A stretch of DNA of 64,000 bases from Methanosarcinales archaeon (GTDB taxonomy: Archaea > Halobacteriota > Syntropharchaeia > Alkanophagales > Methanospirareceae), in NCBI GenBank assembly GCA_030611045.1, contig JAUWQN010000001.1:1484-65483 (forward strand). The letters are read 5' to 3'. The position numbers and the translations under genes were made by a program. Below are positions 14,674-33,795 of the stretch, one piece after another. The notes beneath the pieces are model-generated. The model did no database searches. It was given only the letters and a program-made list of their open reading frames with translations, and had not been told where the DNA came from. Positions within the stretch are counted from its first letter, which is position 1, and every line of letters starts with the position of its first letter.

Positions 14674-14737
14674 GCTGGGAACATCAAAAACATCCGTTTT
14701 TAAATGTATCTTTTTGTATTACGAGTGTAATGCAAAA

Positions 14738-16948: not shown

Positions 16949-17902
16949 TTAATCCCTCAATTCGCCCATATAGAGCCATTGGTCGAAATAGCCTTTACTT
17001 TCTTTGTTCTCTTTTATTACCGCTTCAAACTCATCTTGTAATATCTCATTCAGAATCCCCGTTTCTTCTTCATTCGATACCGTAAATAGCACCTTACCCT
17101 TGCTTTTTAAAACTTTTGGGACTGCTTTGAGCACCTTTTCCCATGTAAATCGCTCAAACGGTGTGAGCTTGCCCACCATAAATCCGAACACCACGTCAAA
17201 TTCCTTACCAAAGAATGCTGAAAGCAGTGAACAATCCAGTACAATGCTCTTCTTGGGCTTTAATACGCCTTCCTCTAATCCTTTGCAAATTTCACATCTG
17301 TTTATATCAATAGCGAGCGGGAAAATACCTGATTCGTGCAGTGCAATCGTAGCACCACCATTGCCACAGCCGATTTCGAGCGCTTTCGTAGTTTCTGCTG
17401 TTTCAACACTATATTCCCTTAAAAATTCGCTTAGCACTTTTTTCAATACCTCTATCCTCTCCCTGGGATAAAAGCTCTCCTCCTTTAAATCACAATCACA
17501 AAATAATCGGTTCACCAATCCCACGGAATAAAATTCGATCACCCCGTCATGATATTTTTCCCTCTTAACCTCTACCACCCGTTCCTGAGCACCTTTTATC
17601 TTATGTGCGAGAGCCTCAAAGTCTTCTTTCCTTACCTTATCTGCAATAACATCGGTGAAGATAATCCAGAAATCCAGGTCTTTATCACGTAGGGCAATGC
17701 CGATTAGCTCGTTTCGCTCATCATAGATCCTTACCAGTTCTAACACATCTTCTTCTTTGACGTTCCCCATATATTCGAGCGTTCTGCCAATCCACTTTTG
17801 CCCCGCATAGCTCTCTTCCACCAGCATAGAATTGTCAATTGCCAATAAATTGCTTAATTCCATTTTCATTTGATCAACTTCCTCTTTCATCGCCCTAAAC
17901 AA
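16949..17902 (-). CDS. class I SAM-dependent methyltransferase with extra N-terminal domain
   Basis: 317 aa. SAM motif I 'LEIGCGNGGATIAL', followed by 'DIN' and a 'VVFG' motif II/III. Start overlaps the upstream gene by 16 nt. Confidence 0.6.
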   Translation of the reverse strand: MFRAMKEEVDQMKMELSNLLAIDNSMLVEESYAGQKWIGRTLEYMGNVKEEDVLELVRIYDERNELIGIALRDKDLDFWIIFTDVIADKVRKEDFEALAHKIKGAQERVVEVKREKYHDGVIEFYSVGLVNRLFCDCDLKEESFYPRERIEVLKKVLSEFLREYSVETAETTKALEIGCGNGGATIALHESGIFPLAIDINRCEICKGLEEGVLKPKKSIVLDCSLLSAFFGKEFDVVFGFMVGKLTPFERFTWEKVLKAVPKVLKSKGKVLFTVSNEEETGILNEILQDEFEAVIKENKESKGYFDQWLYMGELRD

Positions 17903-18453
17903 TACGCAATAAACTGTTCTGAGGGGTATTCATGGATTGTCGTAGCGATAATCTCACCAGCCCCATACTCCGAGACAGCCAAAATCGCTTTCTCATCGTC
18001 ATCTTCTTTTACCACTAATATTACGTCCCAGCCATCTTCCATCTCTTCAAAGTAGCCGTCGCACAAACATTCTACGGTTTCCACTATTGCTGCTGTCTTA
18101 TGCGCCTTCATCTGCTCTATTTTTGCCCTTCGCACCTCTCTCACATAATTGACTTTTAGGGGGAGCCAATTGTATGCATCCCTACTTGAGAATGCACCGG
18201 ATACCAAAAGGGTACCTCCTACAGTTACGAAATTATTTATGAACTCGCTGGTTGCTCTAAGATCAGTTAGTACTCCGGAATAAAACGCATTTCCAAAACC
18301 CGCCGGCACTATTAGCAACTTACGTGCTCTCCATGAGAAGAAAGGTGCAGCTAAGATTTTTGGCGTTAACACCTCACAGTCAAACCCCCGATCGGCAAGA
18401 TACTGCTTAAATGGTGTATCTTTATCCCAGAGCAATGTAATTCCCATCTCCAT
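17887..18453 (-). CDS. hypothetical protein (possible class-I glutamine-amidotransferase-like fold)
   Basis: 188 aa. 'KLLIVPAGFG' resembles a DJ-1/GATase nucleophile-elbow context, but no catalytic Cys is evident. Coupled to the methyltransferase. Confidence 0.3.
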   Translation of the reverse strand: MEMGITLLWDKDTPFKQYLADRGFDCEVLTPKILAAPFFSWRARKLLIVPAGFGNAFYSGVLTDLRATSEFINNFVTVGGTLLVSGAFSSRDAYNWLPLKVNYVREVRRAKIEQMKAHKTAAIVETVECLCDGYFEEMEDGWDVILVVKEDDDEKAILAVSEYGAGEIIATTIHEYPSEQFIAYCLGR

Positions 18454-18550
18454 CTGTTCTTCCTTTTTACCACAGCAAAAAAATATAGTTGGATTTATAG
18501 ATGATTTTGTGCTTAGTGCTTAGCTTAGCAGGTTTTGCGGTTACCTCATA

Positions 18551-19150
18551 TTATTGTAGTTCTTGAAGGCTCATTTTTACTTTACTTACGATTTCGTTAA
18601 GCTTCTCTTGTGGAACCCCCTCATGCCTTACAATGCCAGTTACGATAGCCACTAATTTTCCCGGCGTATCTCCCTCTTTAAATCTCGTGCTCACTCCTAT
18701 CGACTCGAAATCTTTAAAAGTTGCGGGACATTGACAGAGAACGATGGCCGGTATATCCACCCTTTTCAAAATAAACCGCACTTTATAGATAAAATGTTGT
18801 TTGACGTTACCATGATGTAATACAGCAAGCTTATGTCTTCCGATTATATCCAGCTCCCTTGGCTCCAATCCAAAAGCTACGCCATGCCCCCCCTTGATTG
18901 GTGCCTCTGCCGGCGTTCCATCACCTGCATTCAATACTAATACACTCGCGTGAACACCTTTGTCCCTTAATTCGGTAGTTATTTCACATACCGGTTTGGG
19001 CACATGCCTCACACCAGGGGACATTGCCAGTGCTATAACATCACTTTCCCATGCTTTCGAAAATGTCCCTCTCTGAGCCATACCACCGCCTAACCCAAGC
19101 CCTTGCCCCTTCCTACATGCTACAATCTGGGTGCCTCTTCCTACAGACAT
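18551..19150 (-). CDS. McrC-like protein (methyl-coenzyme M reductase operon protein C family; MCR activation)
   Basis: 199 aa. 'GLGLGGGMAQRGTF...AMSPGVRHVPKPVCEIT...LVLNAGDG...KLAVLHHGNVKQHFIYKVRFILKR' matches the McrC/Mmp7 family pattern. Length fits McrC (about 200 aa). Confidence 0.55.
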   Translation of the reverse strand: MSVGRGTQIVACRKGQGLGLGGGMAQRGTFSKAWESDVIALAMSPGVRHVPKPVCEITTELRDKGVHASVLVLNAGDGTPAEAPIKGGHGVAFGLEPRELDIIGRHKLAVLHHGNVKQHFIYKVRFILKRVDIPAIVLCQCPATFKDFESIGVSTRFKEGDTPGKLVAIVTGIVRHEGVPQEKLNEIVSKVKMSLQELQ

Positions 19151-19246
19151 CTTTTAATCAGGACCTCGAATTACTCTCAACTCTTCTACTTGTTTTTGGA
19201 GTGACAAATAATCTTGGCAATAATACCATATAAAAGTTGAAAAGCT

Positions 19247-19621
19247 CTAACGCCGCCGTTTTTTCTTTAACATCATTATATCTGGTCTTGGAGGCGCTTT
19301 AGAGCCCGCAAACTCGTTCCTACAACGTTCACACAAGTCTCTTGTGGTAAGCACAACCACTTCTTCACTCCCTGGCAGCTTCCTCGCATATATGATTTCG
19401 GGCTTTACACCAACTGACTCACTTATCTCTTCCAGTATTGCATTTATCTTCTCCGTGAATACCTCTACCGCATCGCTCTGCAATCCCCTCAGGTCTGCAG
19501 CAAAGCCAACACAGCCACATGCCATTCCGAATACTTTTGCTTCTGGTACGAATATATTGCCCACCAGTTTCCTCAGTTCTTCTTCAAGTCTTCTCCTACC
19601 TTCTATTATCTCTTCTTTCAC
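19247..19621 (-). CDS. small Cys-containing hypothetical protein with basic C-terminus
   Basis: 124 aa. Cys pairs 'CGC' and 'CERC', C-terminal 'LKKKRRR'. Overlaps the upstream U32-like gene by 4 nt. Confidence 0.35.
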   Translation of the reverse strand: MKEEIIEGRRRLEEELRKLVGNIFVPEAKVFGMACGCVGFAADLRGLQSDAVEVFTEKINAILEEISESVGVKPEIIYARKLPGSEEVVVLTTRDLCERCRNEFAGSKAPPRPDIMMLKKKRRR

Positions 19622-20634
19622 TTTTCATGTACCCTCAACACTTTAGCTGTTAGTTCATCACAATATCTACATTCGTCACATATCTTTTTGCAGGTTTTCC
19701 ATTGTTTTATACTCCCGTCCAAGAGTTCGTTATCCACATGGAATGTATACCTGAGTTCAGAAGGACAGTCAATGAGTTCAAGCAGGTTTCCATTGAACGA
19801 ACGCCGGGCATAAGCCACCATACAGTTTATTATCCAGTTCACTGCATTTGCCCTGCCTGAGATCTTGAAGCTGTTTATGCCGATCGCCTCGTATTCTTGC
19901 ATGTCCTCCGGTCTTATCCACGGCGAGCGTATGATTTGCGAGGGATCTCTCACCCTCATGGAGATGCACTTGTCAAAGTAGTAGTCGCTGAAGATGTTCG
20001 GGGATTGCGCTTTCATGAGTGAAGAGTGAGATGATGTTATATGCGAGAAGAGGTTGAAATGAGCGTGACGAAATGGGCATTTATAAAGGCAGCCTTCATT
20101 CACGAGCACCTTGATGTCACAGTTAACCGCCTTCGTTATTGCTTCTAAGACCGCAAAGTTACGGTTTATGTTTGTATCCACCGCGATGGTATCCGCACCG
20201 AGGTCTTCGAAGAATTCAGCTCGTTGTGGTGAATCCACATGCGCGATGCACGAAACGACCGTCTCCATAGAGAAATCCAGTAACAGCTCAATGAAATACG
20301 GCTCTGCTACCGTAACGCCATCAACATCAGCTTTGTTCAGTTCCTCGAAGTACCTCTTAAACAGCTTGTACCCTTCAAACGTTAAGTGATAGCCACCCAG
20401 ACAGGAAGGATTTACCACGATGTTTATCATTATGCCGTGCTGATGCGCATAAGCTGTTTGTTCCTTTATATCTGCAATACGCGCAGAATGGAGCGTAGCT
20501 CTACCGCTTCCCATCACCTCTGGCGAACCTGCCATGTAAACCTCGACTACTTCGTTCAGGCCCTCTGCTTCTTTAACTTCGATTATCTCCTTCAAAGCGG
20601 CGAAATGTCCGGGGTGCGGGACGACCAATCTCAT
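19618..20634 (-). CDS. peptidase-U32-family-like protein (TIM-barrel, Cys-rich), paralog B
   Basis: 338 aa. Paralog of the adjacent gene, with some short nucleotide stretches conserved, e.g. 'tatgccgtgctgatgcgcata' in both copies about 1 kb apart. Overall pattern is U32-like (N-terminal 'L..P.G....LK..I....a.....VY.G..........R', central 'VNEGC.Y.CPF'). Confidence 0.45.
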   Translation of the reverse strand: MRLVVPHPGHFAALKEIIEVKEAEGLNEVVEVYMAGSPEVMGSGRATLHSARIADIKEQTAYAHQHGIMINIVVNPSCLGGYHLTFEGYKLFKRYFEELNKADVDGVTVAEPYFIELLLDFSMETVVSCIAHVDSPQRAEFFEDLGADTIAVDTNINRNFAVLEAITKAVNCDIKVLVNEGCLYKCPFRHAHFNLFSHITSSHSSLMKAQSPNIFSDYYFDKCISMRVRDPSQIIRSPWIRPEDMQEYEAIGINSFKISGRANAVNWIINCMVAYARRSFNGNLLELIDCPSELRYTFHVDNELLDGSIKQWKTCKKICDECRYCDELTAKVLRVHEK

Positions 20635-21635
20635 TTAAGATACGTCAATGCCTCCTTTGTAATTTTATCGCAATACCCACACTCGTTACAGACCTTCTTA
20701 CAATGCTTCCATTGGTCTATGCTCCCCTCAATCTTTTCATTATCGAGATAAAACATGTACCTGAGCATCTGAGGGCAATCAAGGATGTCAAGCACGTTAC
20801 CCTTAAAAGATCGCTGGGAATAGAACCGCATACAATCTATTATCCAGTTCACCAATTTTGTCCTACCAGAAAGTTTAAAGTCCGTTATTCCTATAGCCTC
20901 GTATGCTTTGAGGTCCTCAGGTCGTATCCATGCGGACTTTATTATCTGTGTGGGATCCCTCAGCCGAATAGATATACACTTATCGAAATAATAGTCCGGA
21001 GCAAATAGAGGGGAACGAGGTTGAATTAAACTGCTGAGATGCGATGCCAGATTGTAATGCGAATACCTGAACGGGCATCTATAAATACAGCCTTCGTTCA
21101 CTATCAGTCTCACATCGCAGTCAACCGCCTTTACTATCCCCTCCAAGAGGTCGAAATGCCGGTTTATGTTCGTATCCACCGTGATCATATCAGCGCCAAG
21201 CTCGTCGAAGAATTTTGCTCGCTGTGGCGATTCAACGTACGACAAACAGGACACAACGGTCTGCATAGGGAAATCACGTAAAAGCTCTACGAGGTACGGC
21301 TCTGCAACCGTAACGGCATCAACGCCTGCCTTGTTCAGCTCACCAAAGTACCACGAGAACATCTTATAGCCCTCGAACGAGAGATGATGTCCACCTGTAC
21401 ACGTAGAATTCATCGTGATATTCATCTTTATGCCGTGCTGATGCGCATATTCGGTCTGTTCCCGGATCTCATCGAGAAGCGGCGCGTGCAGCACACCTCG
21501 TCCACTACCCATCACGTCCGGAGAGCCACCCATGAACACCTCGTCCACCTCATCCAAGCCCTCCGCCTCTTTGACCTCGATTATCTCCTTTAAAGCTGAG
21601 AAATGACCAGGATGAGGGATTTTTAATCTCACCAT
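20631..21635 (-). CDS. peptidase-U32-family-like protein, paralog A
   Basis: 334 aa. Tandem paralog of 19618-20634, with 4-nt overlap between the two. Confidence 0.45.
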   Translation of the reverse strand: MVRLKIPHPGHFSALKEIIEVKEAEGLDEVDEVFMGGSPDVMGSGRGVLHAPLLDEIREQTEYAHQHGIKMNITMNSTCTGGHHLSFEGYKMFSWYFGELNKAGVDAVTVAEPYLVELLRDFPMQTVVSCLSYVESPQRAKFFDELGADMITVDTNINRHFDLLEGIVKAVDCDVRLIVNEGCIYRCPFRYSHYNLASHLSSLIQPRSPLFAPDYYFDKCISIRLRDPTQIIKSAWIRPEDLKAYEAIGITDFKLSGRTKLVNWIIDCMRFYSQRSFKGNVLDILDCPQMLRYMFYLDNEKIEGSIDQWKHCKKVCNECGYCDKITKEALTYLK

Positions 21636-21831: not shown

Positions 21832-22116
21832 CTATTTCTTTTTCAGGACTATTTTGAAACCGAGATCATGTGGACCTAAATTCTGTCGTGATTTGAATGA
21901 TTCTTTGTGTCCTTTTGATTCTACTGCTTGCCGGATGTCTTCCACTTTCACAGTCTTCCTTCCAGCGTGCTTAGCGAGTGCTACAGCCTTCTTCGCTATT
22001 TTCGTGCCTTCCGCCTCTATCAGCTTCGCAAATTCCGCAGTAGCATCTTCGCTCACTCGCTCTGCTCCTGCGTTCTTAATCAACCTGTTTACAGGTGCTA
22101 ATGGTAGTTCAACCAT
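21832..22116 (-). CDS. archaeal histone (HMf family) with about 27-aa lysine-rich C-terminal extension
   Basis: '[65 protein letters not shown]' aligns with HMfB. It is followed by the tail '[29 protein letters not shown]'. The ORF has an upstream ATG at 22125, but the histone-like start is 22116. Confidence 0.8.
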
Positions 22117-22206
22117 TTTTATCACTATGATTAGGTAATGGGTGGGGTATATAAGCTTTTCTGGATGAATGAGTATCTTTTCTCTCCTTTCTTCAACACC
22201 TTCTTC

Positions 22207-23808
22207 TCAGGTCGTAAACAACCTGTAGATTCTCGTTATTTTATCCGGCAGTTTCATCACATCAGCTATCACTACCCATCTGCTGCTGGCATACATTCGT
22301 GGCAGATACTCCGCCGCTTCACGATCAACCGTTATACAGAACGACTTGATACCGTATCTTTGAGCTTCCCTTAATGCCATTCTTGTGTCTTCAATCGCGT
22401 AATCGCCATGATACTCCTGGTCTAATGGCTTACCATCACTCAGGAGAATAAGCAGTTTTGTCTTCTCCTCTCTTATTCGTAATTTCGTTGTCGTATGTCT
22501 TATTGCAGGCGCAATTCGCGTCGATTGCTCATTCGTCAGCATAGAAATTCTGCTCTGCACTCGTTGATCGTACGGAACCTCAAAGTCTTTAATGTTGTAA
22601 AACACCACATTATCCCTTCCATACCCTGAGAATCCGTAAATGGCAAAAGCATCGCCTAATTCCTGCAATGCTTCAGACATCACTACCAATGCTTCTTTCT
22701 CACACGCTATCGTTGCTCCACCCGTACTACCACTCACGTCAACGAGAAACGCTACTGCTATATCCCGAGAGCGTTTTTCAGTTCGTACATAGTTTCTTTC
22801 AGAAGGTGAAAGCCTCAGCCTCTTATCAATAAAAAATTGCACCGCTGCATCAAAGTCAATATCATCGCCATCAAATTGCCTCTTAAATTTTACTAACCCC
22901 TCCGGTCTGAGCATCTGGAATTCCCTCCGAATGGTCTTTACCAGTCCTTTATACTTCTGAATGGTGTCAAAATAGAAGTTGTTTGACTCACCCTCTAAGA
23001 CTCGTTCTCTAACCCGCGTCCAATTTACTCGATAATCGCCGATATCACTACCCCACTCGGGATATAAATACGTGTCTTGCTCGCGCTGAAGTTCATTTTC
23101 ATCTCGCACTGAAGTTTCAAGGTCGCTTAGATAATCCTTCACCGTGTTCGGCTCAAGCGCATCAATTCGTGACTCGACATCCCTGGGTTTGACTCCTTTC
23201 TTTTTGTACAAAGCGCGTAACAGCTCTCTTACTGTATCCTCTGAAGCATAATTTGCTGAATCCTTTTTATCTCCGTTTTTTGGGGTTTCGGTTTGTTCGC
23301 TCTCTATCTTCTCGGTTATTTTTCGCGCCGTCCTCCCAAAATTGCCAATCGTTTGATCAACTTGAGATTGGTCTAACGGTGCTGAAAAGGGAGGCACTGA
23401 TTGATAGGGTTCGTGAAAATTGACATCTATCAAAAAATATAATTCGGCAGCCACCCGTGCAGTTTCGTGGACGTCTGCATCAGGGGATGTTAACGTCTGG
23501 CTTAGTGATAACGCTTTGTCAAGTATTTGTTCTATTTCTTCTGGAACTTGCTCTTTTGTTCTCCCAGCCATTAACTTTTGCGCTATAAGCTCCACTGCTC
23601 TTCGTTTATCAGTGGCTAATTCCTCAAGTGAAGGCCTTTTCGATACCATGTGAACGCTCATTTCTGATATTTGTTCACCAAGAACCGGATATTCTGCTTG
23701 CAGCCGTGAATTGATTCTATAATCTTCAAGTATGGTTGTAAGATCCTTCGCTAACACCGGCTCAGGGAAGAGTTCATAAAAATGTTCCAGCTCGCTCGTT
23801 TCGTTCAT
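22207..23808 (-). CDS. von Willebrand factor A (vWA) domain protein, NorD/CbbO-like
   Basis: 533 aa. C-terminal vWA with MIDAS 'DVSGSTGG' and a NorD-like N-terminal region. Start overlaps the upstream repeat protein by 4 nt. Confidence 0.7.
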   Translation of the reverse strand: MNETSELEHFYELFPEPVLAKDLTTILEDYRINSRLQAEYPVLGEQISEMSVHMVSKRPSLEELATDKRRAVELIAQKLMAGRTKEQVPEEIEQILDKALSLSQTLTSPDADVHETARVAAELYFLIDVNFHEPYQSVPPFSAPLDQSQVDQTIGNFGRTARKITEKIESEQTETPKNGDKKDSANYASEDTVRELLRALYKKKGVKPRDVESRIDALEPNTVKDYLSDLETSVRDENELQREQDTYLYPEWGSDIGDYRVNWTRVRERVLEGESNNFYFDTIQKYKGLVKTIRREFQMLRPEGLVKFKRQFDGDDIDFDAAVQFFIDKRLRLSPSERNYVRTEKRSRDIAVAFLVDVSGSTGGATIACEKEALVVMSEALQELGDAFAIYGFSGYGRDNVVFYNIKDFEVPYDQRVQSRISMLTNEQSTRIAPAIRHTTTKLRIREEKTKLLILLSDGKPLDQEYHGDYAIEDTRMALREAQRYGIKSFCITVDREAAEYLPRMYASSRWVVIADVMKLPDKITRIYRLFTT

Positions 23809-25424
23809 GTTCCCTCACCTCCATATTTTGCCCTTATTCTACCGGCGACATCTTGAACTTTCATCAGTTCAAAATCAAAGCTACCGTATTCTAAATGCGC
23901 TTCTTCATGGGTCGCTATAACTTTGTACATCGTGAAATTTCTATCTTCTTCTCGAAACTCCTGAACTCGCTCTGGAAGATAGATCCTCGCACCGTCGGTT
24001 GAGGCTGATGCTCCCCGTGCTCCCACAATCTCGATCCTGTAACCCAATAATGCACTCAGATAAGTTGACAAAACGGGTTTAACTTTCTTCAGCGCAAGAC
24101 CTTGTGTGAGCGCATCAATAAAAGCAGCATATTCAGAAGACTCGCCCCTCACAAACGATGATGCCCTTCCTTCTCCTATCTCTGCTAACTCAGCCGCTTG
24201 GGCGGCAACTTTCTCTAACCCGTCATAACCAACCCTATCAATGAGATCAGGACTCACCTCCAGCAGACTAATGGCGGTACTCCCACTATACCCGGCGACC
24301 CGTGTACAAAGCTCATACACCTTCTTCACTAATTCTTTATCACCATATTCATGCAATTGCTTAAAGAGATCGGGACATTCATTGAGCAATCGAACAGCAG
24401 TTCTCCAATTATAATCCTCCGCTATCTGACAACTGAGACCATACACACTCGTAACGAACTCTTTATCACCGTATTTGAGCAATTCCGCAATGAAATCAGG
24501 ACTCCCATCAAGTAATTTAGCAGCAACAAAACCATCATCCTTGTTGACCTGACGACAAAGATTAGCAATCTTCTCCAAACAATCATTATCAACTCGATCA
24601 ACGAGATTCGAACTCATCTCCAGCAGCCGAGCAGCAACAAAACTATCCTCTTTGGCAATCTGGCTGCAGAAAGCCGCAACTTCCTCTAAGCCTTCATAAC
24701 CTACTTTATCAATAAGCTCTGGACTACTCCCCAACAAACTAACCGCCGTTCTCCAATTATACCTGGCGACCTGAGTACTAAGACCCGCAACCTTCTCTAA
24801 CCCTTCATATCCTATTTTATCAACGAGTTCTGGACTCATCTCCAGCATCCTAACCGCAACATCACTGTGATCCTTAGCAACTTGACTACTAAGGTCTGCA
24901 ACCTCCTCTAACCCGTCATAACCCACTTTATCTATGAGGTCTGGACTCGTCCCCAACAAACTAACCGCCGTTCTCCAATTATACCTGGCAACTCTACTAC
25001 TAAGACCAAAAACATTCTTAACCAATTCTTTATCGCCGTACTTCAGCAATCTATCAATGAGATCGAGACTCTCATCAAGCAGCCGCGCAGCAACAAAACT
25101 AGTATCCCGGGCAACCTGACGACAAAAGCCGTAGACCTCCATCACTAATTCCTTATCGCCGTACTTCAGCAATCTATCAATGAGTTCAGGGCTCTTCTCA
25201 AGCAACCTAACCGCGGTTCCTCCACTATACCTGGCGACCTGAGCACTAAGACCCGCAACCTGCTCTAAACCGTCATAACCAACTCTATCGAGCAAAGGAT
25301 ACAATTCGCTAACCAGTTTCTCAAGTACTTCACCTTCGTAGTGCTCCTCAAGCAGTTTCTTTATTTTTCTCTCTCCAAGAGCGCGTTTGATAGAATTTCC
25401 TGCCATCTTCAGGCTAACCCACAA
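23805..25424 (-). CDS. alpha-helical tandem-repeat protein (about 37-41 aa repeats, about 10 copies) with C-terminal HExxH-containing domain
   Basis: 539 aa. Repeats such as 'LIDRLLKYGDKELVMEVYGFCRQVARDTSFVAARLLDES' and 'LIDKVGYDGLEEVADLSSQVAKDHSDVAVRMLEMSPE'. Nucleotide-level repeat of about 222 bp (e.g. 'ctaaccgccgttctccaattatacctggc' at about 24737, 24960 and 25208). C-terminus contains 'IATHEEAHLEYGSF'. Confidence 0.5.
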   Translation of the reverse strand: MWVSLKMAGNSIKRALGERKIKKLLEEHYEGEVLEKLVSELYPLLDRVGYDGLEQVAGLSAQVARYSGGTAVRLLEKSPELIDRLLKYGDKELVMEVYGFCRQVARDTSFVAARLLDESLDLIDRLLKYGDKELVKNVFGLSSRVARYNWRTAVSLLGTSPDLIDKVGYDGLEEVADLSSQVAKDHSDVAVRMLEMSPELVDKIGYEGLEKVAGLSTQVARYNWRTAVSLLGSSPELIDKVGYEGLEEVAAFCSQIAKEDSFVAARLLEMSSNLVDRVDNDCLEKIANLCRQVNKDDGFVAAKLLDGSPDFIAELLKYGDKEFVTSVYGLSCQIAEDYNWRTAVRLLNECPDLFKQLHEYGDKELVKKVYELCTRVAGYSGSTAISLLEVSPDLIDRVGYDGLEKVAAQAAELAEIGEGRASSFVRGESSEYAAFIDALTQGLALKKVKPVLSTYLSALLGYRIEIVGARGASASTDGARIYLPERVQEFREEDRNFTMYKVIATHEEAHLEYGSFDFELMKVQDVAGRIRAKYGGEGT

Positions 25425-25524
25425 TAGTTACCTTTACTTTCTTGCATTTAAAATTTACCGCAGAGAACGCTGAGTTCTAAGAGGATATTCGATCCGTGAA
25501 CTCTGCGGTTAATCTGACATCAAG

Positions 25525-26355
25525 CTACAGGTTAAAGTAATTTTTAAGGATTTCTTCTATACTTCTTTTGAGATCTGCATCGTGCGTTAAAGGTTCTGTC
25601 ATAGTCGAGTAGAGCGCGTCTCTCATTGGCACTCCGCTTTTGAGCAAGGTGCCCGCATAAACGAGTTCCCTTGTAGAAACGCCTTCTTCGAGTCCTTGAT
25701 GAATAAGATTGCGTATCTTATTCGCGGCTTTTACCAATCTTCTTGCAGTATCCTCTTCGACACCCGTCTCCTGAAGAACAATTTGAGTTTCTAAATCTTC
25801 ACCTGGCCAGCCGAGATTGATACTTACAAACCGCTGTCTTGTGCTCTGTTTCAATTCTTTCAAGACGCTCTGGTAACCGGGATTGTAACTAATTACCAGC
25901 ATAAATTCATCCGGAGCGTGGAATATCATTCCGAGTTTCTCTATCAACAAAGATCTTCTATAATCTGTTAATGGATGAATGACGACCGTGGTGTCTTTTC
26001 GTGCTTCCACGACTTCATCCAGATAAATGAGTCCACCATTTTTAACCGCCATGAGAAGAGGACCATCAATCCACTCAACTTCATCGCCTTTAATGATGTA
26101 CCTCCCCGTCAGGTCATTCCCACTTAAATCATCGTGACAGGCAACAGTAAAGAGTGGCCGACCTAACTTCCAGGCCATGTACTCAACTAATCGTGTTTTA
26201 CCACTTCCTGTAGGGCCCTTCAGCATAACGGGAAGTTTGTTCTCGTAGGCGGCTTCAAATAGCGCAACCTCGCTTCCTTGCGGTAAATAAAACGGCTCCT
26301 CCTTTATTTCAAAGCTACCATCCTCATATAATCCGGAGTCCAATCTCTCTAACAA
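25525..26355 (-). CDS. CbbQ/NorQ/NirQ/GvpN-family AAA+ ATPase (MoxR class)
   Basis: 276 aa. '[46 protein letters not shown]...[37 protein letters not shown]...[11 protein letters not shown]' is a near-canonical CbbQ signature. Confidence 0.85.
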
Positions 26356-26848: not shown

Positions 26849-27823
26849 TTATGCGCCCATATTTATAGATGGATGCGGTGCTACTGGTTCAATCTCGTGT
26901 TCTGCTGTGTTCGCTTCTGCGACAATCATGTCTGCCATGCCGACCAGCGGGAACACCGTTGGTGCATTCTCTATTGGTCCGTAAAGCACGAAATCATGAC
27001 CCGCTATTACCGGGATAATATTAGAGGCTATGTCACAGATCTTGAATACGTCTGCGCCGAGTCCTTCCCAGCCGCCCGGTCCTTTCGTCGCATGCTCCTT
27101 CCGGAACGTCTTCAGCCACGTCCACGCGGAAGGTGCATTGTGGATACCTAATCCTACTGCAATACCGAATTTCGATTTGACGGCAAAGCCTGAAGCAACG
27201 GCCGAGCCACACCCTGCGCCGATGGGCAGTGTAGCTGGATCACACATCTGTTTCGTTACGCCCATGTCCCGCGCCAGATGCACCAAACCTTTCTCAAAGG
27301 TGCCTGCTCCTGTCTCTAACAGATCAATCTTCCCTGCTACCGTGGAATCTTTTGGATTGAACGCCAGTATAATTGCTGCTTCTATTCTGGAATTCTTGAT
27401 CGCTTCAAGCTCCTCTGGTGAACACGAAACGTTTATTGAGTTATACACCGCCTTCTCTATCAGTCCCACTTCATCTGCGTACTTGAGCCCTGCAACCTTT
27501 GCATCCGCCACCGTCGAGTCGATCAAGAAAGGAACGTCGCTCACCTCGGTGCAGAACGCGATCTCTTTCTCCATCGCCTCGGGCGATTCCGAAAATATCT
27601 GCATGATGCATGGATTTCCAGTCAAATCCGAGAATTCCTCTTGCTTCTTCAACACGTCTTCCGCCGCTTTCTTGTCAAATATCCCTTTCTCCGCATCTTC
27701 GACCAGATAATGCTTCGCGTAGAATATCGTGCCACAAAGGACTGTTGCGTGCTCTCCAGGCTGGCCTCCAACTTTCAATCCCGCAATATCATATACATCC
27801 TGTTCTCTATCAAACAAAAACAT
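26849..27823 (-). CDS. mtrH: tetrahydromethanopterin S-methyltransferase subunit H
   Basis: 324 aa. MtrH/pterin-binding TIM-barrel pattern. Last gene of the mtrEDCBAFGH order. Confidence 0.85.
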   Translation of the reverse strand: MFLFDREQDVYDIAGLKVGGQPGEHATVLCGTIFYAKHYLVEDAEKGIFDKKAAEDVLKKQEEFSDLTGNPCIMQIFSESPEAMEKEIAFCTEVSDVPFLIDSTVADAKVAGLKYADEVGLIEKAVYNSINVSCSPEELEAIKNSRIEAAIILAFNPKDSTVAGKIDLLETGAGTFEKGLVHLARDMGVTKQMCDPATLPIGAGCGSAVASGFAVKSKFGIAVGLGIHNAPSAWTWLKTFRKEHATKGPGGWEGLGADVFKICDIASNIIPVIAGHDFVLYGPIENAPTVFPLVGMADMIVAEANTAEHEIEPVAPHPSINMGA

Positions 27824-27844
27824 TTTTTTCCGTCTTCCTCCTTT

Positions 27845-28126
27845 TTATGCCATCAGGAATATCACATACGTAACTATTCCTATCATCACGCCGTATAAAA
27901 GGCCCATTGTGAAACCTATTTTTTCGCCCTGTCGTTGCCAGAGTTCTCCTGCGACGAATTCCACTCGTTCATCCATGTCATTTATTCGCTCCAGGAGTTT
28001 CGTGTGCTCTGGCGGCGTTACTGTGACAGGAACAGCTTTCTCCTCCAGTTCCGCCTCCAGTTTCTCCAGAATATCCGCTTCTATTTCCTTTTCCATCTCC
28101 TCTTCTGGCTTCTTTTCTTCTCCCAT
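27845..28126 (-). CDS. mtrG: tetrahydromethanopterin S-methyltransferase subunit G
   Basis: 93 aa. 'ERINDMDERVEFVAGELWQRQGEKIG' followed by a C-terminal TM helix. Position between mtrF and mtrH. Confidence 0.65.
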   Translation of the reverse strand: MGEEKKPEEEMEKEIEADILEKLEAELEEKAVPVTVTPPEHTKLLERINDMDERVEFVAGELWQRQGEKIGFTMGLLYGVMIGIVTYVIFLMA

Positions 28127-28153
28127 TCTTCTTTTCTCCTCTTATCCTCCTAC

Positions 28154-28357
28154 CTACACCATTACCAAAAGTTTAAGACCGACGAAAAGGGTAATCACGA
28201 AAATCCCGATTGCCAGACCTTTTACGAATCCAGCCCAGAGTCCCGCTGCGAACCGTGAATCACGGCCGATCATTGTTATAAAGTGTCTCAGGTCCTCTAT
28301 TCGTGCAGTTAAAACCGCCGTTTCCGGTGTTTGTTGTACTACCTTCTGTGGCGCCAT
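28154..28357 (-). CDS. mtrF: tetrahydromethanopterin S-methyltransferase subunit F
   Basis: 67 aa. Amphipathic N-terminus plus C-terminal TM helix; position after mtrA. Confidence 0.55.
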   Translation of the reverse strand: MAPQKVVQQTPETAVLTARIEDLRHFITMIGRDSRFAAGLWAGFVKGLAIGIFVITLFVGLKLLVMV

Positions 28358-28358
28358 T

Positions 28359-29099
28359 TTACAATATCACCCCCAATATGAGTGGCAAAAGGAAGATGAA
28401 CGCGCTTATCAACCCCGCCATGAGTCCGAAAAGAGCGTTTTTCGATAGCCCTGAAGTTAACTTCTGGTCCCTTGCCATTATCGTTGTCTTGTAGGTTATC
28501 TGCGCAGTGGCGCGGTCGATTGTGGACATCTGTGGAGATGCGGGCATGGCCAATGGCATTTCTAACACTGCTGCAGCCGCTTCCTCGCCACCCATTTTCA
28601 CAATCATCGGGTCTTCAGGATACGCGCCCGGATCTCGAGCTATAAGCTCTTTGACCTTTGCATTGATCTGCCCATAGTCCTCCGCACCCATCATGTCTAT
28701 TACTTCCACCTGCTGTCTAAATCGCTCCACTGCTTCACTCGGTAAGTTCTCGATGAATGGAATTGCTCCCGTGGTTCCGATTATCTTATGAGTCGATGGG
28801 TCAACACCGTTCGCCACCAGTGCCATCAATGATCCGCCGCTTATATGCCCTGGAACTTCCGCACCGGCTGCAATGATGAATCGTATGTTCGGGTTTGAGA
28901 TGATGTTCGTCATTATCTTCTCTAACCCGATGTTCTCTGTCTTGTCCGGTCCTTGTATTGCGATACCTTTCAGGTGCTCGATGTGGAAGTACGACCCATT
29001 TGAAGATATTGCCACGCAACTCTGCGGATCGCCAACTTCATAGTCGCCGGTTACCAGCGGCCATCCATCCGGAACTTCTTTCTTCTCTGCCATCTTCAC
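28359..29099 (-). CDS. mtrA: tetrahydromethanopterin S-methyltransferase subunit A (corrinoid-binding)
   Basis: 246 aa. 'EVPDGWPLVTGDYEVGDP...AISS...IAIQGP...GAEVPGHISGGSLMALVANGVD' and C-terminal TM anchor; hallmark MtrA sequence. Confidence 0.9.
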   Translation of the reverse strand: MKMAEKKEVPDGWPLVTGDYEVGDPQSCVAISSNGSYFHIEHLKGIAIQGPDKTENIGLEKIMTNIISNPNIRFIIAAGAEVPGHISGGSLMALVANGVDPSTHKIIGTTGAIPFIENLPSEAVERFRQQVEVIDMMGAEDYGQINAKVKELIARDPGAYPEDPMIVKMGGEEAAAAVLEMPLAMPASPQMSTIDRATAQITYKTTIMARDQKLTSGLSKNALFGLMAGLISAFIFLLPLILGVIL

Positions 29100-29398
29100 A
29101 CACCGCCTCCTAAGGCTATGAACACTATTGCGACCGCTAACACCGCAAAGGTAATTCCGAGCATGAAGAAGGTCATGAAGCCTGCATTACTCAACGCTCC
29201 CTCTCTGTTTGGCTGCGATAGTTTGAAACCGCTGGTTGGATCAAGGCAATTGAGCAGGTCATCCACTGCAGATTCCAGAACCGTTATTTGGTCTTCTATT
29301 GGTCCAAGATTCACTTTATAGAACCCCGGTCTGCTGACCCCTACGGTAAGCGTGTCTGGATCTAACACCACGCCATACTTCTCATTGATTACTATCAT
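29096..29398 (-). CDS. mtrB: tetrahydromethanopterin S-methyltransferase subunit B
   Basis: 100 aa with C-terminal TM helix. Overlaps mtrA by 4 nt; operon position. Confidence 0.7.
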   Translation of the reverse strand: MIVINEKYGVVLDPDTLTVGVSRPGFYKVNLGPIEDQITVLESAVDDLLNCLDPTSGFKLSQPNREGALSNAGFMTFFMLGITFAVLAVAIVFIALGGGV

Positions 29399-29420
29399 GT
29401 TTTCTTTTTTCCTCCATTAT

Positions 29421-30272
29421 TTATTCCAGCGTTTTGATTATTCCTGTTCCCACTGTTTCATAACACTCATCCATGCAGGCCTTGATGAACATCCTGAAGT
29501 ACACTACCCATACAATCGCTCCAAAGACTATCATTGACACTCCGTCTAAAATTCCATACGGAGAAGTACCGAGTCCGATCATCGCCAATCCCAACAGGAC
29601 GCATATCAACCCTGAAATCTCTACCGCACACATTCTTGTTCTCTCTCTTCGCTCATCTGGTCCGAGACATGCGTTGTACGGATGGAGCATCGCAAAACAA
29701 TTGAAGATGAACAGCAGTGCAATAAGCCCTGTATTCATTACGTTGTTTACCACTGCGGCGAAGCTCAGCGAGCCGGTCAAGATGGAACATTCGAGCAAGA
29801 TTGCAAGTGTCCCTGCCATTCCTAACTCCATCATCGCCCGCTCTAATCTCGGGATTTTCATCGCTATGAACTTCTCACCGTTCGCAAATATACCCGATAC
29901 CAGGCCAATGGCGCCCATGACTATGACACCAACCAACACTGCTGGATACAACTGGCCCACTCTACCATACTCTGCGACGGCCAATCCCATCAGCGCTCCT
30001 ACAACACCATAACCTGTCCCCAGCACGCCTATGGATGGAACGCCAGTCCCTAATCCATATTTAGACGTCTTTCGCACTGAATCCATACCCCAGAGTAAGA
30101 CTAAAAGTAGCCCCACTCCTTTTATCACTGCTGGCAAGCCCGTAAATATGACTATCACCGCGCCAATTATACCTGCGATAAGCCCCATCTCGGTCTCTTC
30201 CGGCGGGAATTTGAACGACAATCCCTTTTTCGTCGGCTCTTCCTCTTCTATTACTGCTGGTGTTACTGTCAT
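29421..30272 (-). CDS. mtrC: tetrahydromethanopterin S-methyltransferase subunit C
   Basis: 283 aa polytopic membrane protein. Operon position between mtrD and mtrB. Confidence 0.7.
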   Translation of the reverse strand: MTVTPAVIEEEEPTKKGLSFKFPPEETEMGLIAGIIGAVIVIFTGLPAVIKGVGLLLVLLWGMDSVRKTSKYGLGTGVPSIGVLGTGYGVVGALMGLAVAEYGRVGQLYPAVLVGVIVMGAIGLVSGIFANGEKFIAMKIPRLERAMMELGMAGTLAILLECSILTGSLSFAAVVNNVMNTGLIALLFIFNCFAMLHPYNACLGPDERRERTRMCAVEISGLICVLLGLAMIGLGTSPYGILDGVSMIVFGAIVWVVYFRMFIKACMDECYETVGTGIIKTLE

Positions 30273-30273
30273 T

Positions 30274-30975
30274 TTACAATGCCCCTCCTAATATCGTTGC
30301 TGCAAGCAAGACCACTATTCCGCAAAGCAGCGAGACCGCAAACGATGAGATCAGTGCTTTTGGCAGTCGCTTGAACTTCGGGTCATGGAATCCCTCTATG
30401 GTGCCTCGTATGTTGTACGCTGCAAGTATCGCGTTGGCTACGAAGATGGATAACGCCACAATCGCTGCCAGGCCTGCTGAAAAGTGCGCGTAGTTCAGTA
30501 GCGCGTAGTACATTAGCGCACCGGCGAAACCTGCTAAGAACCCTCCTATGGTGCCGGATACATAAACCACGTTTGGCACGCCGTGCCCATCGGTTTGCGG
30601 TGTCCTGTACGGAGCTTGTGGCTCCTTTGTTATCGGGTCCACGTCTACTCTGCCTGAAACTGGAACGATACCACAGCCAAAGGCATAAAGGACATTCGCC
30701 ATGAACATGACCACACACATCATCACCGTAGCGCCGACTGCACCGGATAACGATACGAGAAGGAGACTGTCTGAGAAAGTAGCCACTGATGCCGCTGTGA
30801 ATAACCCGGTCATTACCGCTCCAAGCATTATCTGGACTGTCCCCGTTGCGATTCCTGTTGCAGTGCCCATTGCCGCTGGTGCACCGCCCACTGGTAATAG
30901 ATGAGCGCCTAAACTTGCAAGTAACCCACCTATCACCACACATCCCACTATCAAAATCATCAATACTGGTTCCAT
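30274..30975 (-). CDS. mtrD: tetrahydromethanopterin S-methyltransferase subunit D
   Basis: 233 aa polytopic membrane protein. Operon position. Confidence 0.75.
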   Translation of the reverse strand: MEPVLMILIVGCVVIGGLLASLGAHLLPVGGAPAAMGTATGIATGTVQIMLGAVMTGLFTAASVATFSDSLLLVSLSGAVGATVMMCVVMFMANVLYAFGCGIVPVSGRVDVDPITKEPQAPYRTPQTDGHGVPNVVYVSGTIGGFLAGFAGALMYYALLNYAHFSAGLAAIVALSIFVANAILAAYNIRGTIEGFHDPKFKRLPKALISSFAVSLLCGIVVLLAATILGGAL

Positions 30976-30984
30976 TTTATCTCA

Positions 30985-31968
30985 TCACACTCCTACAAAA
31001 GGCCCGTATTTCTTTCTCACCCATTTCACGAACACCAGGTTTCCCACCATCAACGCTGCTACTATAAGGAGCCCCAGTACGATACCGAATATCGCTGCCA
31101 TATCACCGGTCGCTGTAAAGGCTGGTAATGCTGGTAAAAAGCCTCCGAGCTGCATCCCCACCATACTTCTCCAGCTTTCAAAGAGAATGATTAGTCCAAA
31201 GGTCATTCCCGTACACGGTGCACCGAATTTCAAACAGAAACCTGCAATGTCCTTCTGTGTTCGTACACCGCACTCTGCGTATCGCGTGATCTTACCGTGG
31301 TAAACTACCCGCTTTCCTTCGCCAAACGGTCTGTCTTGAAACTCTCGCTCCGCTCCATAATGGACATCACCGGTAGAGGATCCTATTGCGCCCACCGTAA
31401 TCCCCCAGATGAATCCGAGTAGGGGTAGGGCGAACGGATGGTTCAATGCTGGGTTCCCTGACAGAGTCCCTATGTTGCTCTGTATGTAAGCTATGCAGGT
31501 GATACAGAACGTCGTCATAAACGCGTGCGCTCCAATCGGTACCAGATGTCCGTATAACACATCGAGATAGATTGGTTGCTGGAAACGCTTCTGCGCCGCT
31601 GTTCTGCCGCAATGCGATGTCGCCGAAAATATCATGTTGATCATTGTTGCCGCGAGTACCCCGATGGGTATTGCCAGCACTGCCGCTTTCCATTCCTCAC
31701 CCGGAACTAAAGGCTCAAACTGCCGCAATAGTAACCATGCTATCGTCCCCGCTGTTACACAATACATTGCATTCGATAATGGCTCGCCTGAAATCGCTTT
31801 GTTAAAGAACCGATTTACCTGCCCCACCTGCGCCGCTAGCTGCACTTGCGAATTCGGATTGCTCTGTGATCCCATATCTGACTCCAAGTCCTCGAACGTA
31901 CATGCTATGAACGCTAAGAACGCTATCACTAACATCCATGCAAAAAGCAATACTACTTCTATTGGCAT
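30985..31968 (-). CDS. mtrE: tetrahydromethanopterin S-methyltransferase subunit E
   Basis: 327 aa polytopic membrane protein. First gene of the operon. Confidence 0.8.
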   Translation of the reverse strand: MPIEVVLLFAWMLVIAFLAFIACTFEDLESDMGSQSNPNSQVQLAAQVGQVNRFFNKAISGEPLSNAMYCVTAGTIAWLLLRQFEPLVPGEEWKAAVLAIPIGVLAATMINMIFSATSHCGRTAAQKRFQQPIYLDVLYGHLVPIGAHAFMTTFCITCIAYIQSNIGTLSGNPALNHPFALPLLGFIWGITVGAIGSSTGDVHYGAEREFQDRPFGEGKRVVYHGKITRYAECGVRTQKDIAGFCLKFGAPCTGMTFGLIILFESWRSMVGMQLGGFLPALPAFTATGDMAAIFGIVLGLLIVAALMVGNLVFVKWVRKKYGPFVGV

Positions 31969-33706: not shown

Positions 33707-33795
33707 CATAACAATCGAAATATATATAAATTTGCCGGTGTTTTTCCTAAATTAGTGGATGACGGAATAGTATAGTATAAGTTAGGAGTGTTGAG

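Follow-up and report, generated by a model that had tools for sequence, protein, structure and literature searches.

An Mtr/MCR-activation supercluster in ANME-1

The window, a stretch of 64,000 nucleotides, derives from an ANME-1 methane-oxidising archaeon. It carries an Mtr/MCR-activation supercluster in the order mmp14-mmp17-mmp7, mtrEDCBA(G/F)H, an insert and a U32 cluster. On the minus strand, the last of these reads U32A, U32B, DUF5402, mcrC, a 188-aa ORF and a SAM methyltransferase gene. The features are as follows:

32267..35227, plus strand: mmp14, mmp17 and mmp7, divergent from mtrE (TIGR03285 525.8, TIGR03291 123.1 and TIGR03274 298.4 bits)
26849..31968, minus strand: mtrEDCBA(G/F)H operon, upstream of the U32 cluster on the same strand (mtrH, TIGR01114 401 bits)
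21832..26355, minus strand: insert between mtrH and U32A, encoding a CbbQ/NorQ-type AAA+ protein, a 539-aa repeat protein, a VWA/CobT_C protein and a histone
20631..21635, minus strand: U32A, a divergent peptidase-U32-family TIM-barrel protein of 334 aa with 8 conserved Cys (PF01136 29.4 bits)
19618..20634, minus strand: U32B, its 338-aa paralogue (PF01136 37.8 bits)
19247..19621, minus strand: DUF5402, 124 aa, coupled to U32B (PF17393 126 bits)
18551..19150, minus strand: mcrC (TIGR03264 247.6 bits, cut-off 213.5)
17887..18453, minus strand: conserved 188-aa ORF with an HE[YF]PS motif, all family matches below threshold
16949..17902, minus strand: class I SAM-dependent methyltransferase whose N-terminal ~150 aa form an uncharacterised domain (Methyltransf_11 22.5 bits, threshold 21.2)

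Mmp7, a paralogue of McrC, scored below the TIGR03274 cut-off of 349 and matched PF04609 at 289 bits. The activation complex of known structure contains both Mmp7 and Mmp17 (PMC12176620). The identities of the remaining mtr subunits come from tblastn matches to ANME-1 loci with clusters identified as MtrA and MtrB. Pfam identified AAA_5 and CbbQ_C, VWA and CobT_C, and archaeal histone domains in the insert, which is specific to the source genome: it was missing at the same position in five loci (L014, L016, L017, L020 and L023), and the gap from mtrH to U32 in other ANME-1 genomes is 107-210 bp. A poly-T run follows the histone gene that precedes U32A, and a TATA-like TTATTTAAATA lies ~35 nt upstream of U32A. 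In other ANME-1 genomes two atwA genes (TIGR03269 630 bits) separate DUF5402 from mcrC, and the order mtrH-U32-(U32)-DUF5402-atwA-atwA-mcrC-GATl-MT is retained across deep-branching families.

The mcrC product, labelled only McrC-like in the original prediction, is a genuine McrC, a subunit of the MCR activation complex, matching chain 8S7V_I over its full length (E 9.6e-64). Its gene follows DUF5402 on the same strand after 96 bp, in agreement with the gap of about 100 bp first noted, and this spacer contains TTTATATGG upstream of mcrC. Stand-alone mcrC was already known in ANME-1 (PMC9081873). The 188-aa ORF starts 97 bp beyond mcrC. Members of its family match Glyco_hydro_42M, BPL_N, DUF4350 and GATase1_like weakly, so that the GATase-like call made earlier has sub-threshold matches behind it, and the ORF had no sequence match in the PDB; it probably encodes a GATase1-like fold without the nucleophile Cys. 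The family directly follows DUF5402 in 6 ANME-1 loci. The SAM methyltransferase was correctly recognised from the outset and has only generic methyltransferases as PDB matches. Its likely start is ATG 17890, from which it overlaps the stop of the 188-aa ORF as ATGA. Orthologues were found in ANME-1 loci and in the ANME-3 MAG HMMV2.

Two divergent U32 paralogues and a four-cysteine partner

Both U32 ORFs were found on the minus strand at the positions given originally, and their 4-nt overlap was confirmed as an ATGA start/stop. Profile searches upheld their assignment to the U32 family, both exceeding the PF01136 cut-off of 22.4 bits, with a match that spans only profile positions 4-90 of 233. 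Pfam detected no Peptidase_U32_C domain, and the window proteins had no match to NCBIfam TrhP, RlhA or UbiU at E up to 0.1. The best sequence match in a PDB profile search was 5D88 (E 3.3e-34). The AF2 model of U32B (pLDDT 92.7) consists of a TIM barrel and a C-terminal helical CX3CX2CX2C region, and Foldseek again placed 5D88 at the top (E 1.8e-14, TM 0.76 on target). The TIM-barrel pocket is conserved and has invariant polar residues. 5D88 is Mk0906 of the methanogen Methanopyrus kandleri, the only solved U32 structure. It is the closest match in sequence and fold. In the aligned region it has no counterpart of this clade's CxxxC, and it is a different paralogue from the DUF5402-coupled Methanopyrus gene.

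In an alignment of 64 sequences that took in both paralogues and the Methanopyrus member, C182, C186, C223, C315, C319, C322 and C325 of U32B were invariant, and C78 (and C172) was kept in at least 90%. The search for cluster ligands thus yielded many invariant Cys, but not the canonical U32 motif CX6CX15CX3/4C, which is absent from both paralogues. The U32-like protein probably binds one or two Fe-S clusters. Since the canonical motif is missing and the Pfam match is partial, its chemistry may differ from that of other U32 enzymes.

U32A and U32B share 64% identity and 83% positives (BLASTP, E 3e-177). The 21-nt string TATGCCGTGCTGATGCGCATA is present at exactly two positions, 20431 and 21429 (0/100 in shuffled controls), and codes for the conserved YAHQHGI motif. 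This shared stretch is no sign of a recent tandem duplication, and the event is ancient: nucleotide identity is 68%, and just 47% at third codon positions. U32A falls in an ANME-1-specific clade, and the nearest relative of U32B is the single-copy gene of ANME-1 loci with one U32 gene beside DUF5402. We conclude that the U32 gene was duplicated long ago and in ANME-1 only.

Translational coupling of the 124-aa protein to the paralogue pair was also found as predicted, the GTG start of DUF5402 overlapping the U32B stop codon as GTGA. DUF5402 carries an RPD motif and four invariant Cys, arranged as CGC...CxxC. Its AF2 model (pLDDT 91.2) matched no PDB fold significantly, and we found no description of it in the literature. 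The family is rare: a set of 1.84 billion proteins contained only 45 representatives.

Gene neighbourhoods of U32 and DUF5402 in other lineages

In 66 of 90 loci DUF5402 lies immediately 3′ of a U32-like gene, often with an overlap, and these 66 span ANME-1, Methanoperedens, Syntrophoarchaeia, Methanosarcinaceae, Methanobacteriaceae, Methanopyrus and Dehalococcoidia-labelled contigs. Most carriers have a single U32 gene, and the conserved unit is the U32-like gene with DUF5402, not the U32 pair. This module is limited to a few groups of anaerobes, and most methanogen orders yielded no carrier.

Linkage of the module to MCR-related genes, which the original prediction left to a neighbourhood survey, is conserved in three further lineages. 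The order is U32-DUF5402-mtrEDCBAFGH in 13 Methanosarcinaceae loci; in Methanolobus the GATl family of the 188-aa ORF follows mtrH and closes this operon. Four Methanoperedens loci read U32-DUF5402-x-DUF2098-mcrBDGA, and DUF2098 co-purifies with the MCR activation complex (PMC12176620). In Syntrophoarchaeum an mcrA homologue and a 195-aa ORF precede U32-DUF5402, a ThiS-like gene overlaps the U32 start, and in one copy an RNase P subunit gene follows. Linkage to mcrC and atwA, however, was confined to ANME-1; the methyltransferase is also linked in one ANME-3 MAG.

Elsewhere the surroundings differ. In Methanopyrus, U32 and DUF5402 end the hmd/hcg [Fe]-hydrogenase cofactor cluster, away from mcr and mtr. 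The module is likewise distant from these genes after guaA in Methanothermobacter tenebrarum-type genomes, where the context includes THUMP methyltransferases, downstream of TusA/HypA genes in Methanoperedens type 2, and beside a PaaK-like ligase gene in Dehalococcoidia-labelled contigs.

Proposed function and alternatives

We tentatively propose that U32/DUF5402 is an Fe-S, O2-independent hydroxylase-type enzyme acting on the methyl-transfer/methyl-reduction machinery, a reading we hold to be plausible without giving it even chances. The assignment draws on gene context and distant homology. The core would be the divergent U32 TIM-barrel protein with its eight conserved Cys and the translationally coupled four-Cys DUF5402. 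O2-independent prephenate-type hydroxylation, or a related two-electron oxidation, of an aromatic or activated carbon is the most likely chemistry because the sole characterised U32 enzymes to which the proteins are homologous are UbiU/UbiV, TrhP and RlhA (PMC6747719, PMC10990095, PMC6599085, PMC5727448); electrons would leave through Fe-S centres in the U32 subunit and in DUF5402. Gene context makes a substrate within the methyl-transfer/methyl-reduction machinery most likely, and its location inside a methane-enzyme moving and activating gene cluster makes the module a candidate for oxygen-free modification chemistry. In ANME-1 the substrate could be MCR itself (e.g., its 7-hydroxy-tryptophan) or an MCR cofactor; the enzymes installing this residue and the modified F430 of ANME-1 are still orphan (PMC9081873).

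UbiU/UbiV, the O2-independent ubiquinone hydroxylase (E. coli YhbU/YhbV), likewise consists of U32-family TIM barrels with conserved Cys, encoded by two overlapping or adjacent paralogous genes. The analogy drawn originally holds for the N-terminal ~130 residues, which align to UbiU (hhalign probability 96%), but not beyond them, and UbiV gave no significant alignment. The Cys pattern also differs (here C78, C182x3C186, C223 and the C-terminal CX3CX2CX2C), UbiT and the ubiquinone pathway are missing, DUF5402 is an obligate partner that UbiU/UbiV lacks, and the duplication is ANME-1-specific. With the U32 gene duplicated early in ANME-1, U32A, U32B and DUF5402 would be produced from a single unit, and the three may assemble into a heteromer like that of UbiU and UbiV.

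The substrate may instead be a small-molecule cofactor, a possibility we regard as somewhat unlikely. Candidates are F430 (functionalised at C17-2 toward 17(2)-methylthio-F430 in ANME-1), the lower ligand of the Mtr cobamide, H4MPT, and FeGP in Hmd-containing methanogens; the sulfur carriers, nickel chaperone, CoA ligase and methyltransferase encoded nearby would take part in the same pathway. Every U32 substrate characterised so far is either a small molecule or an RNA base, and no U32 enzyme is known to act on a protein. Cofactor modification would also suit the hcg cofactor-biosynthesis cluster of Methanopyrus, the PaaK-like aryl-acid ligase, TusA with HypA, the overlapping ThiS-like gene, the SAM methyltransferase and GATase1-like protein added in ANME-1, and the orphan status of F430 modification. 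Yet no one cofactor is common to all contexts, as F430 has no bearing on Hmd and ANME-1 lacks FeGP. Nor is modified F430 known from most carriers. The canonical 5-hydroxybenzimidazole and FeGP routes, moreover, are not known to need a U32 enzyme.

An RNA hydroxylase with coincidental methanogenesis neighbours is improbable. TrhP (YegQ) and RlhA (YdcP), prephenate-dependent RNA hydroxylases of the same Pfam family for which anaerobic Fe-S-dependent hydroxylation is proposed, account for two of three characterised U32 functions; a homologue goes by the name RlhA/YrrN/YrrO in one database source (P0077), and the guaA/THUMP and RNase P contexts are of a housekeeping kind. The window proteins, in contrast, lack the NCBIfam matches and the U32_C domain and sit among methanogenesis rather than translation genes, their very narrow spread is unlike that of a translation-related function, and in five lineages the module adjoins mtr, mcr or hmd clusters. 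A non-catalytic Fe-S accessory, for electron input or assembly of the ATP-dependent McrC/Mmp7/Mmp17/A2 complex, would suit the many conserved Cys, the position between mtr and atwA-atwA-mcrC in ANME-1 and beside DUF2098-mcrBDGA in Methanoperedens, and the still open identity of the physiological electron donor (PMC12176620). Of this complex (McrC, Mmp7, Mmp17, Mmp3, A2 and DUF2098; PDB 8S7V), the genes for McrC, Mmp7 and Mmp17 surround the U32 cluster in the window, A2 corresponds to two genes in syntenic ANME-1 loci, and DUF2098 occurs in the Methanoperedens loci. However, the solved complex includes neither U32 nor DUF5402, which gene neighbourhood ties to it, and neither protein co-purified with McrC in Methanococcus; most methanogen orders gave no carrier, and the conserved pocket resembles an enzyme active site. 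Such an accessory is quite unlikely. Peptidase activity on a protein, implied by the historical 'collagenase-type' family name and by annotations such as 'collagenase-like PrtC family protease', is very hard to credit: the U32 proteins characterised so far are Fe-S hydroxylation factors and not proteases, the sequences showed neither a protease motif nor a signal peptide, and tight coupling to a four-Cys partner is atypical of a protease.

As for hydroxylation of the methyl-transfer/methyl-reduction machinery, the published PTM table lists no hydroxylated residue for M. kandleri MCR. Because this organism carries U32 and DUF5402, the hydroxy-Trp of MCR cannot be a single shared substrate. Given the non-MCR contexts, the ANME-1-restricted mcrC link and the composition of the conserved unit, we continue to infer a role in MCR modification from context. 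On this reading, the GATase1-like protein and the SAM methyltransferase encoded downstream would be ANME-specific accessories.

Gene cluster and its surroundings

ORF calling on the window identified six genes on the minus strand between 16949 and 21635, with best matches in Methanophagales/Methanospirareceae, that is, ANME-1.

Genes of the cluster
20631-21635, minus: U32A, peptidase-U32-like protein, 334 aa
19618-20634, minus: U32B, its paralogue, 338 aa
19247-19621, minus: DUF5402 protein, 124 aa
18551-19150, minus: mcrC, 199 aa, starting 96 bp past DUF5402
17887-18453, minus: GATl, a weakly GATase1-like ORF, 188 aa, 97 bp past mcrC
ending at 16949, in-frame ATG at 17890, minus: methyltransferase, last gene of the cluster

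The U32A and U32B genes overlap as ATGA, the GTG start of DUF5402 sits within a GTGA shared with the U32B stop, and the methyltransferase ATG overlaps the GATl stop as ATGA. The overlaps confirmed the original prediction of two overlapping paralogous ORFs coupled to a 124-aa Cys-containing protein. A poly-T run located past the histone gene upstream of U32A, together with a TATA-like element (TTATTTAAATA) ∼35 nt ahead of the U32A ATG, suggests a transcription unit beginning at U32A.

Genes upstream of the cluster
32267-35227, plus: mmp14 (DUF2114), mmp17 and mmp7, one unit divergent from mtrE
31968-26849, minus: mtrEDCBA(G/F)H
25525-26355, minus: CbbQ/NorQ-type AAA+ ATPase (insert)
23805-25424, minus: 539-aa internally repetitive protein (insert)
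22207-23808, minus: VWA/CobT_C protein (insert)
21832-22125, minus: histone (insert)

The insert (21832-26355, ∼4.5 kb) separates mtrH from U32A, whereas other ANME-1 genomes have just 107-210 bp at this place. Its AAA+ and VWA genes form a MoxR/VWA pair of the metalloenzyme-remodelling kind within the MCR/Mtr cluster; PADLOC returned nothing meaningful for these two genes or for the GATl ORF. Together, mmp14-mmp17-mmp7, mtr, the insert and U32A-U32B-DUF5402-mcrC-GATl-methyltransferase form a supercluster devoted to the final steps of the pathway. Within 19 kb, mmp14, mmp17, mmp7 and mcrC supply much of the MCR activation machinery; McrC, Mmp7 and Mmp17 are subunits of the ATP-driven complex that activates MCR (PMC12176620). 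Neither atwA nor Mmp3 was identified among the window ORFs scanned. The location of mcrC outside the mcrBGA operon in ANME-1 was already known (PMC9081873).

On its other side the cluster is flanked by genes for a UbiA/MenA-like prenyltransferase (15719-16723), an RHH and AIR-synthase-like protein that faintly matches methanogenesis marker 2 (14585-15667) and CobT (13609-14673). The window also encodes a UbiX-type flavoprotein (7430-7981) and, near ribosomal protein genes, a LarA-family protein (nickel-pincer-nucleotide-dependent racemase; 38220-39467, minus strand), which scored 412 bits to a malate racemase model, under that model's cut-off.

A divergent U32 subfamily and the proteins encoded beside it

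The two paralogues matched PF01136 (Peptidase U32) with 29.4 and 37.8 bits, above the gathering cut-off of 22.4, over profile positions 4-90 of 233 only. A 15-sequence profile found a single meaningful PDB entry, 5D88 (E 3.3e-34), the U32 domain of Methanopyrus Mk0906, on which our literature search returned nothing relevant. An AlphaFold2 model of U32B built from 64 sequences (pLDDT 92.7, pTM 0.91) showed a barrel of eight strands, extended at the C terminus by helices; its best Foldseek match was again 5D88 (E 1.8e-14, TM 0.76 normalised on target), followed by generic TIM barrels. The U32 assignment thus stood as to family and fold, but the four-Cys ligand motif expected with it was missing: the canonical [4Fe-4S]-binding motif CX6CX15CX3/4C (Pelosi et al. 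2019; PMC6747719) is absent from U32A and U32B. Instead, C182, C186, C223, C315, C319, C322 and C325 are invariant in the 64 sequences, and C78 and C172 are each found in at least 90% of them, C78 being invariant in the 15-sequence set. Fe-S binding by this different arrangement (C78, C182x3C186, C223, C315x3C319x2C322x2C325) is plausible and may occur. Family and fold matches without the canonical motif therefore define a divergent U32 subfamily.

Comparison with UbiU, UbiV and RlhA gave a mixed outcome: by hhalign, residues 1-130 matched E. coli UbiU at 96% probability, but UbiV gave no significant alignment, and no window protein matched the curated NCBIfam U32 models (UbiU, TrhP, RlhA) at E up to 0.1. 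U32A and U32B are translationally coupled and may pair like the UbiU/UbiV heterodimer; some ANME-1 loci have one U32 gene only beside DUF5402. No UbiT/SCP2 gene was found in the window locus. As for TrhP and RlhA, the U32_C domain was not detected by Pfam in U32A or U32B, which yielded PF01136 alone. The subfamily is distinguished from UbiU/V, TrhP and RlhA by its Cys pattern, its obligate DUF5402 partner and its genomic context.

U32A and U32B are 64% identical as proteins (BLASTP, E 3e-177). The 21-nt string from which a tandem duplication had been predicted occurs exactly twice, 998 nt apart, where none would be expected by chance, and codes for a conserved YAHQHGI motif. The paralogues are thus real, but their duplication is old, since DNA identity is only 68%, and 47% at third codon positions. 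A quick NJ tree placed U32A and U32B in sister clades, each with a Methanoxibalbensis member at its base; this deep branching and the third-position identity ruled out a recent tandem event. The duplication is specific to ANME-1. The Methanoxibalbensis U32A-like gene has its own DUF5402, and a gene of the unassigned Cys-rich 336-aa family seen in Methanoperedens type 2 lies 2.8 kb from this pair (L024).

The DUF5402 protein is a full-length match to PF17393 (126.2 bits, profile positions 1-119 of 120), with four invariant Cys (CGC...CxxC) and an RPD motif. Its model (pLDDT 91.2) had no significant structural relative in the fold search. Just 45 representatives of the family at 50% identity were found among 1.84 billion proteins, and our literature search found it mentioned in no paper.

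The gene first described as McrC-like encodes a genuine McrC: it exceeds the TIGR03264 equivalog cut-off (247.6 bits vs 213.5), and residues 1-194 align to McrC of the activation complex (8S7V chain I, E 9.6e-64). The methyltransferase call was also upheld, by Methyltransf_11 (22.5 bits vs a cut-off of 21.2), with several related models just under cut-off and generic methyltransferases as PDB matches; the protein is a class I SAM-dependent Rossmann enzyme whose N-terminal domain falls outside assigned families. GATl, first called GATase-like, gave only sub-threshold, weak matches to GATase1-like-fold families, and the alignment of its family members has no conserved nucleophile Cys as found in class I glutamine amidotransferases.

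Genomic placement of the U32-DUF5402 pair

We compared 90 genome loci (80 from one scan and ten by protein look-up or accession), with crude ORF calls grouped by BLAST. A U32-like gene was followed directly by DUF5402 in 66 of the 90, exceptions being mostly contig ends; this adjacency is the invariant feature. Carriers of DUF5402 were ANME-1, Syntrophoarchaeia, Methanoperedens, Methanolobus, Methanococcoides, Methanohalophilus, ANME-3, Methanothermobacter tenebrarum-type Methanobacteriaceae, Methanopyrus and one Dehalococcoidia-labelled group.

Gene orders around the pair (MT, methyltransferase)
ANME-1 families: mtrH, 107-210 bp, U32-(U32)-DUF5402-atwA-atwA-mcrC-GATl-(MT)
Other ANME-1 loci: U32-U32-DUF5402-GATl, without atwA or mcrC
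Methanosarcinaceae, 13 loci: U32-DUF5402-mtrEDCBAFGH
Methanoperedens, four loci: U32-DUF5402-x-DUF2098-mcrBDGA
Methanoperedens type 2 (L046, L048, L051, L052, L060): TusA, Cys-rich 336-aa ORF and nickel chaperone HypA just upstream of U32-DUF5402
Syntrophoarchaeum, one locus: mcrA homologue, 195-aa ORF, U32-DUF5402
Syntrophoarchaeum butanivorans, L085:7744-10457: ThiS-like gene overlapping the U32 start, U32, fused double DUF5402, DJ-1/PfpI
M. tenebrarum-type genomes: guaA-guaA-U32-DUF5402
Methanopyrus kandleri, AE009439 11326-19685 (L090:1-8360): hcgF, hmd, hcgC, NIF3, hcgA, hcgG, hcgB, U32, DUF5402
Dehalococcoidia-labelled contigs, L088:3220-6363 and L089:377-3502: PaaK-like AMP-dependent ligase, U32 fragment, U32, overlapping DUF5402

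The expected MCR-related linkage was recovered: the pair lies beside atwA, mcrC and mtr in ANME-1 (atwA scoring 630 bits to TIGR03269), beside mtr in Methanosarcinaceae, beside mcr in four Methanoperedens loci and beside an mcrA homologue in one Syntrophoarchaeum locus. DUF2098, encoded between the pair and mcrBDGA in Methanoperedens, co-purifies with the MCR activation complex (PMC12176620). GATl directly follows DUF5402 in six ANME-1 loci, and atwA-atwA-mcrC separates the two in other ANME-1 loci; L002, L005, L010 and L023 are among the ANME-1 loci with these orders. In Methanolobus (L029, L031, L035-L037) GATl comes after mtrH, with the entire mtr operon separating it from DUF5402. DUF5402 and GATl thus bracket methyl-transfer or reduction genes in two orders.

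The arrangements in M. tenebrarum-type genomes, Methanopyrus, Methanoperedens type 2, S. butanivorans and the Dehalococcoidia-labelled contigs fall outside an MCR-only picture. In Methanopyrus the pair closes the hmd-hcg cluster, whose genes serve [Fe]-hydrogenase and its FeGP cofactor. The S. butanivorans DUF5402 is a fused tandem double of 253 aa, and many representatives likewise measure 230-255 aa. The Dehalococcoidia assignment is provisional because MAG contig labels can mislead, several 'bacterial' DUF5402 labels belonging to ANME-1 contigs (L016 has mtr genes); should the binning be correct, the module would also be present outside MCR-bearing archaea, beside an aryl-acid-activating enzyme. 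No DUF5402 was found by tblastn beside the bacterial U32 homologues L073-L080.

In the Methanovorans/ANME-3 MAG HMMV2, a full-length homologue of the window methyltransferase (37% identity; L030:6741-7697) is encoded 2.3 kb upstream of U32-DUF5402-mtr, and none was seen in the methanogenic Methanosarcinaceae loci. It may be a methanotroph-specific gene common to ANME-1 and ANME-3.

Candidate function and target

The U32-DUF5402 pair behaves as one enzyme system, to judge by its translational coupling, by its co-inheritance and by fusions that involve DUF5402 copies alone. We judge it unlikely that recurrence beside Hmd, Mtr and MCR clusters in five lineages is due to chance, and this placement suggests a function connected with the cofactor-rich C1-pathway enzymes. 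For U32 proteins, the sole chemistry established so far is O2-independent hydroxylation in which prephenate donates the oxygen, and the Fe-S clusters of U32 enzymes are a proposed electron path (PMC10990095, PMC6747719). Because no other U32 chemistry is established, a hydroxylase-type oxidation would be the most likely mechanism by analogy; roles as RNA hydroxylase, electron donor or protease are less supported. The UbiA/MenA-like gene nearby could suggest a UbiU/V-like hydroxylase of quinones or methanophenazine. This is unlikely, as the pair is present in Methanothermobacter and Methanopyrus, which have no cytochromes, and Methanosarcina was not among the hits.

With atwA, mcrC, mtr and mmp genes as neighbours in ANME-1, the most likely target there is MCR or its cofactor. 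Both 7-hydroxy-Trp and methylthio-F430 of ANME-1 MCR are orphan modifications (PMC9081873, PMC11411713). Tentatively, and as a proposal we consider rather improbable in this specific form, U32A/U32B-DUF5402, helped by GATl and the methyltransferase, would be the missing O2-independent installer of these ANME-1-specific features of the methane-activating enzyme, either converting McrA Trp to 7-hydroxy-Trp or oxidizing the F430 C17-2 side chain and thereby starting the route to 17(2)-methylthio-F430. If so, a protein or a tetrapyrrole would be a new type of substrate for U32 enzymes. We rate a cofactor as almost as probable a substrate as a protein; a cofactor agrees with the small-molecule-type neighbours at several loci. 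A published PTM table excludes hydroxy-Trp as the common product, since M. kandleri has the pair and no hydroxy-Trp in its MCR, and likewise didehydro-Asp, which ANME-1 does not have. Because of the M. kandleri case and the small-molecule-type neighbours elsewhere, hydroxy-Trp alone does not define the family.

To our knowledge, ANME-1 MCR has never been obtained active in recombinant form. The interest of the subfamily lies mainly in testable candidates for ANME-1 MCR maturation: a gene set travelling with atwA, mcrC, mtr and mcr offers small, defined candidates for this chemistry. If the proposal holds, the recently recognised prephenate-dependent U32 hydroxylases would reach into archaeal C1 metabolism, and DUF5402, a family without literature, would gain its first functional context. 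The sole literature link between U32 proteins and ANME that we found is a 2024 preprint, in which their enrichment in ANME was noted and called hard to interpret.
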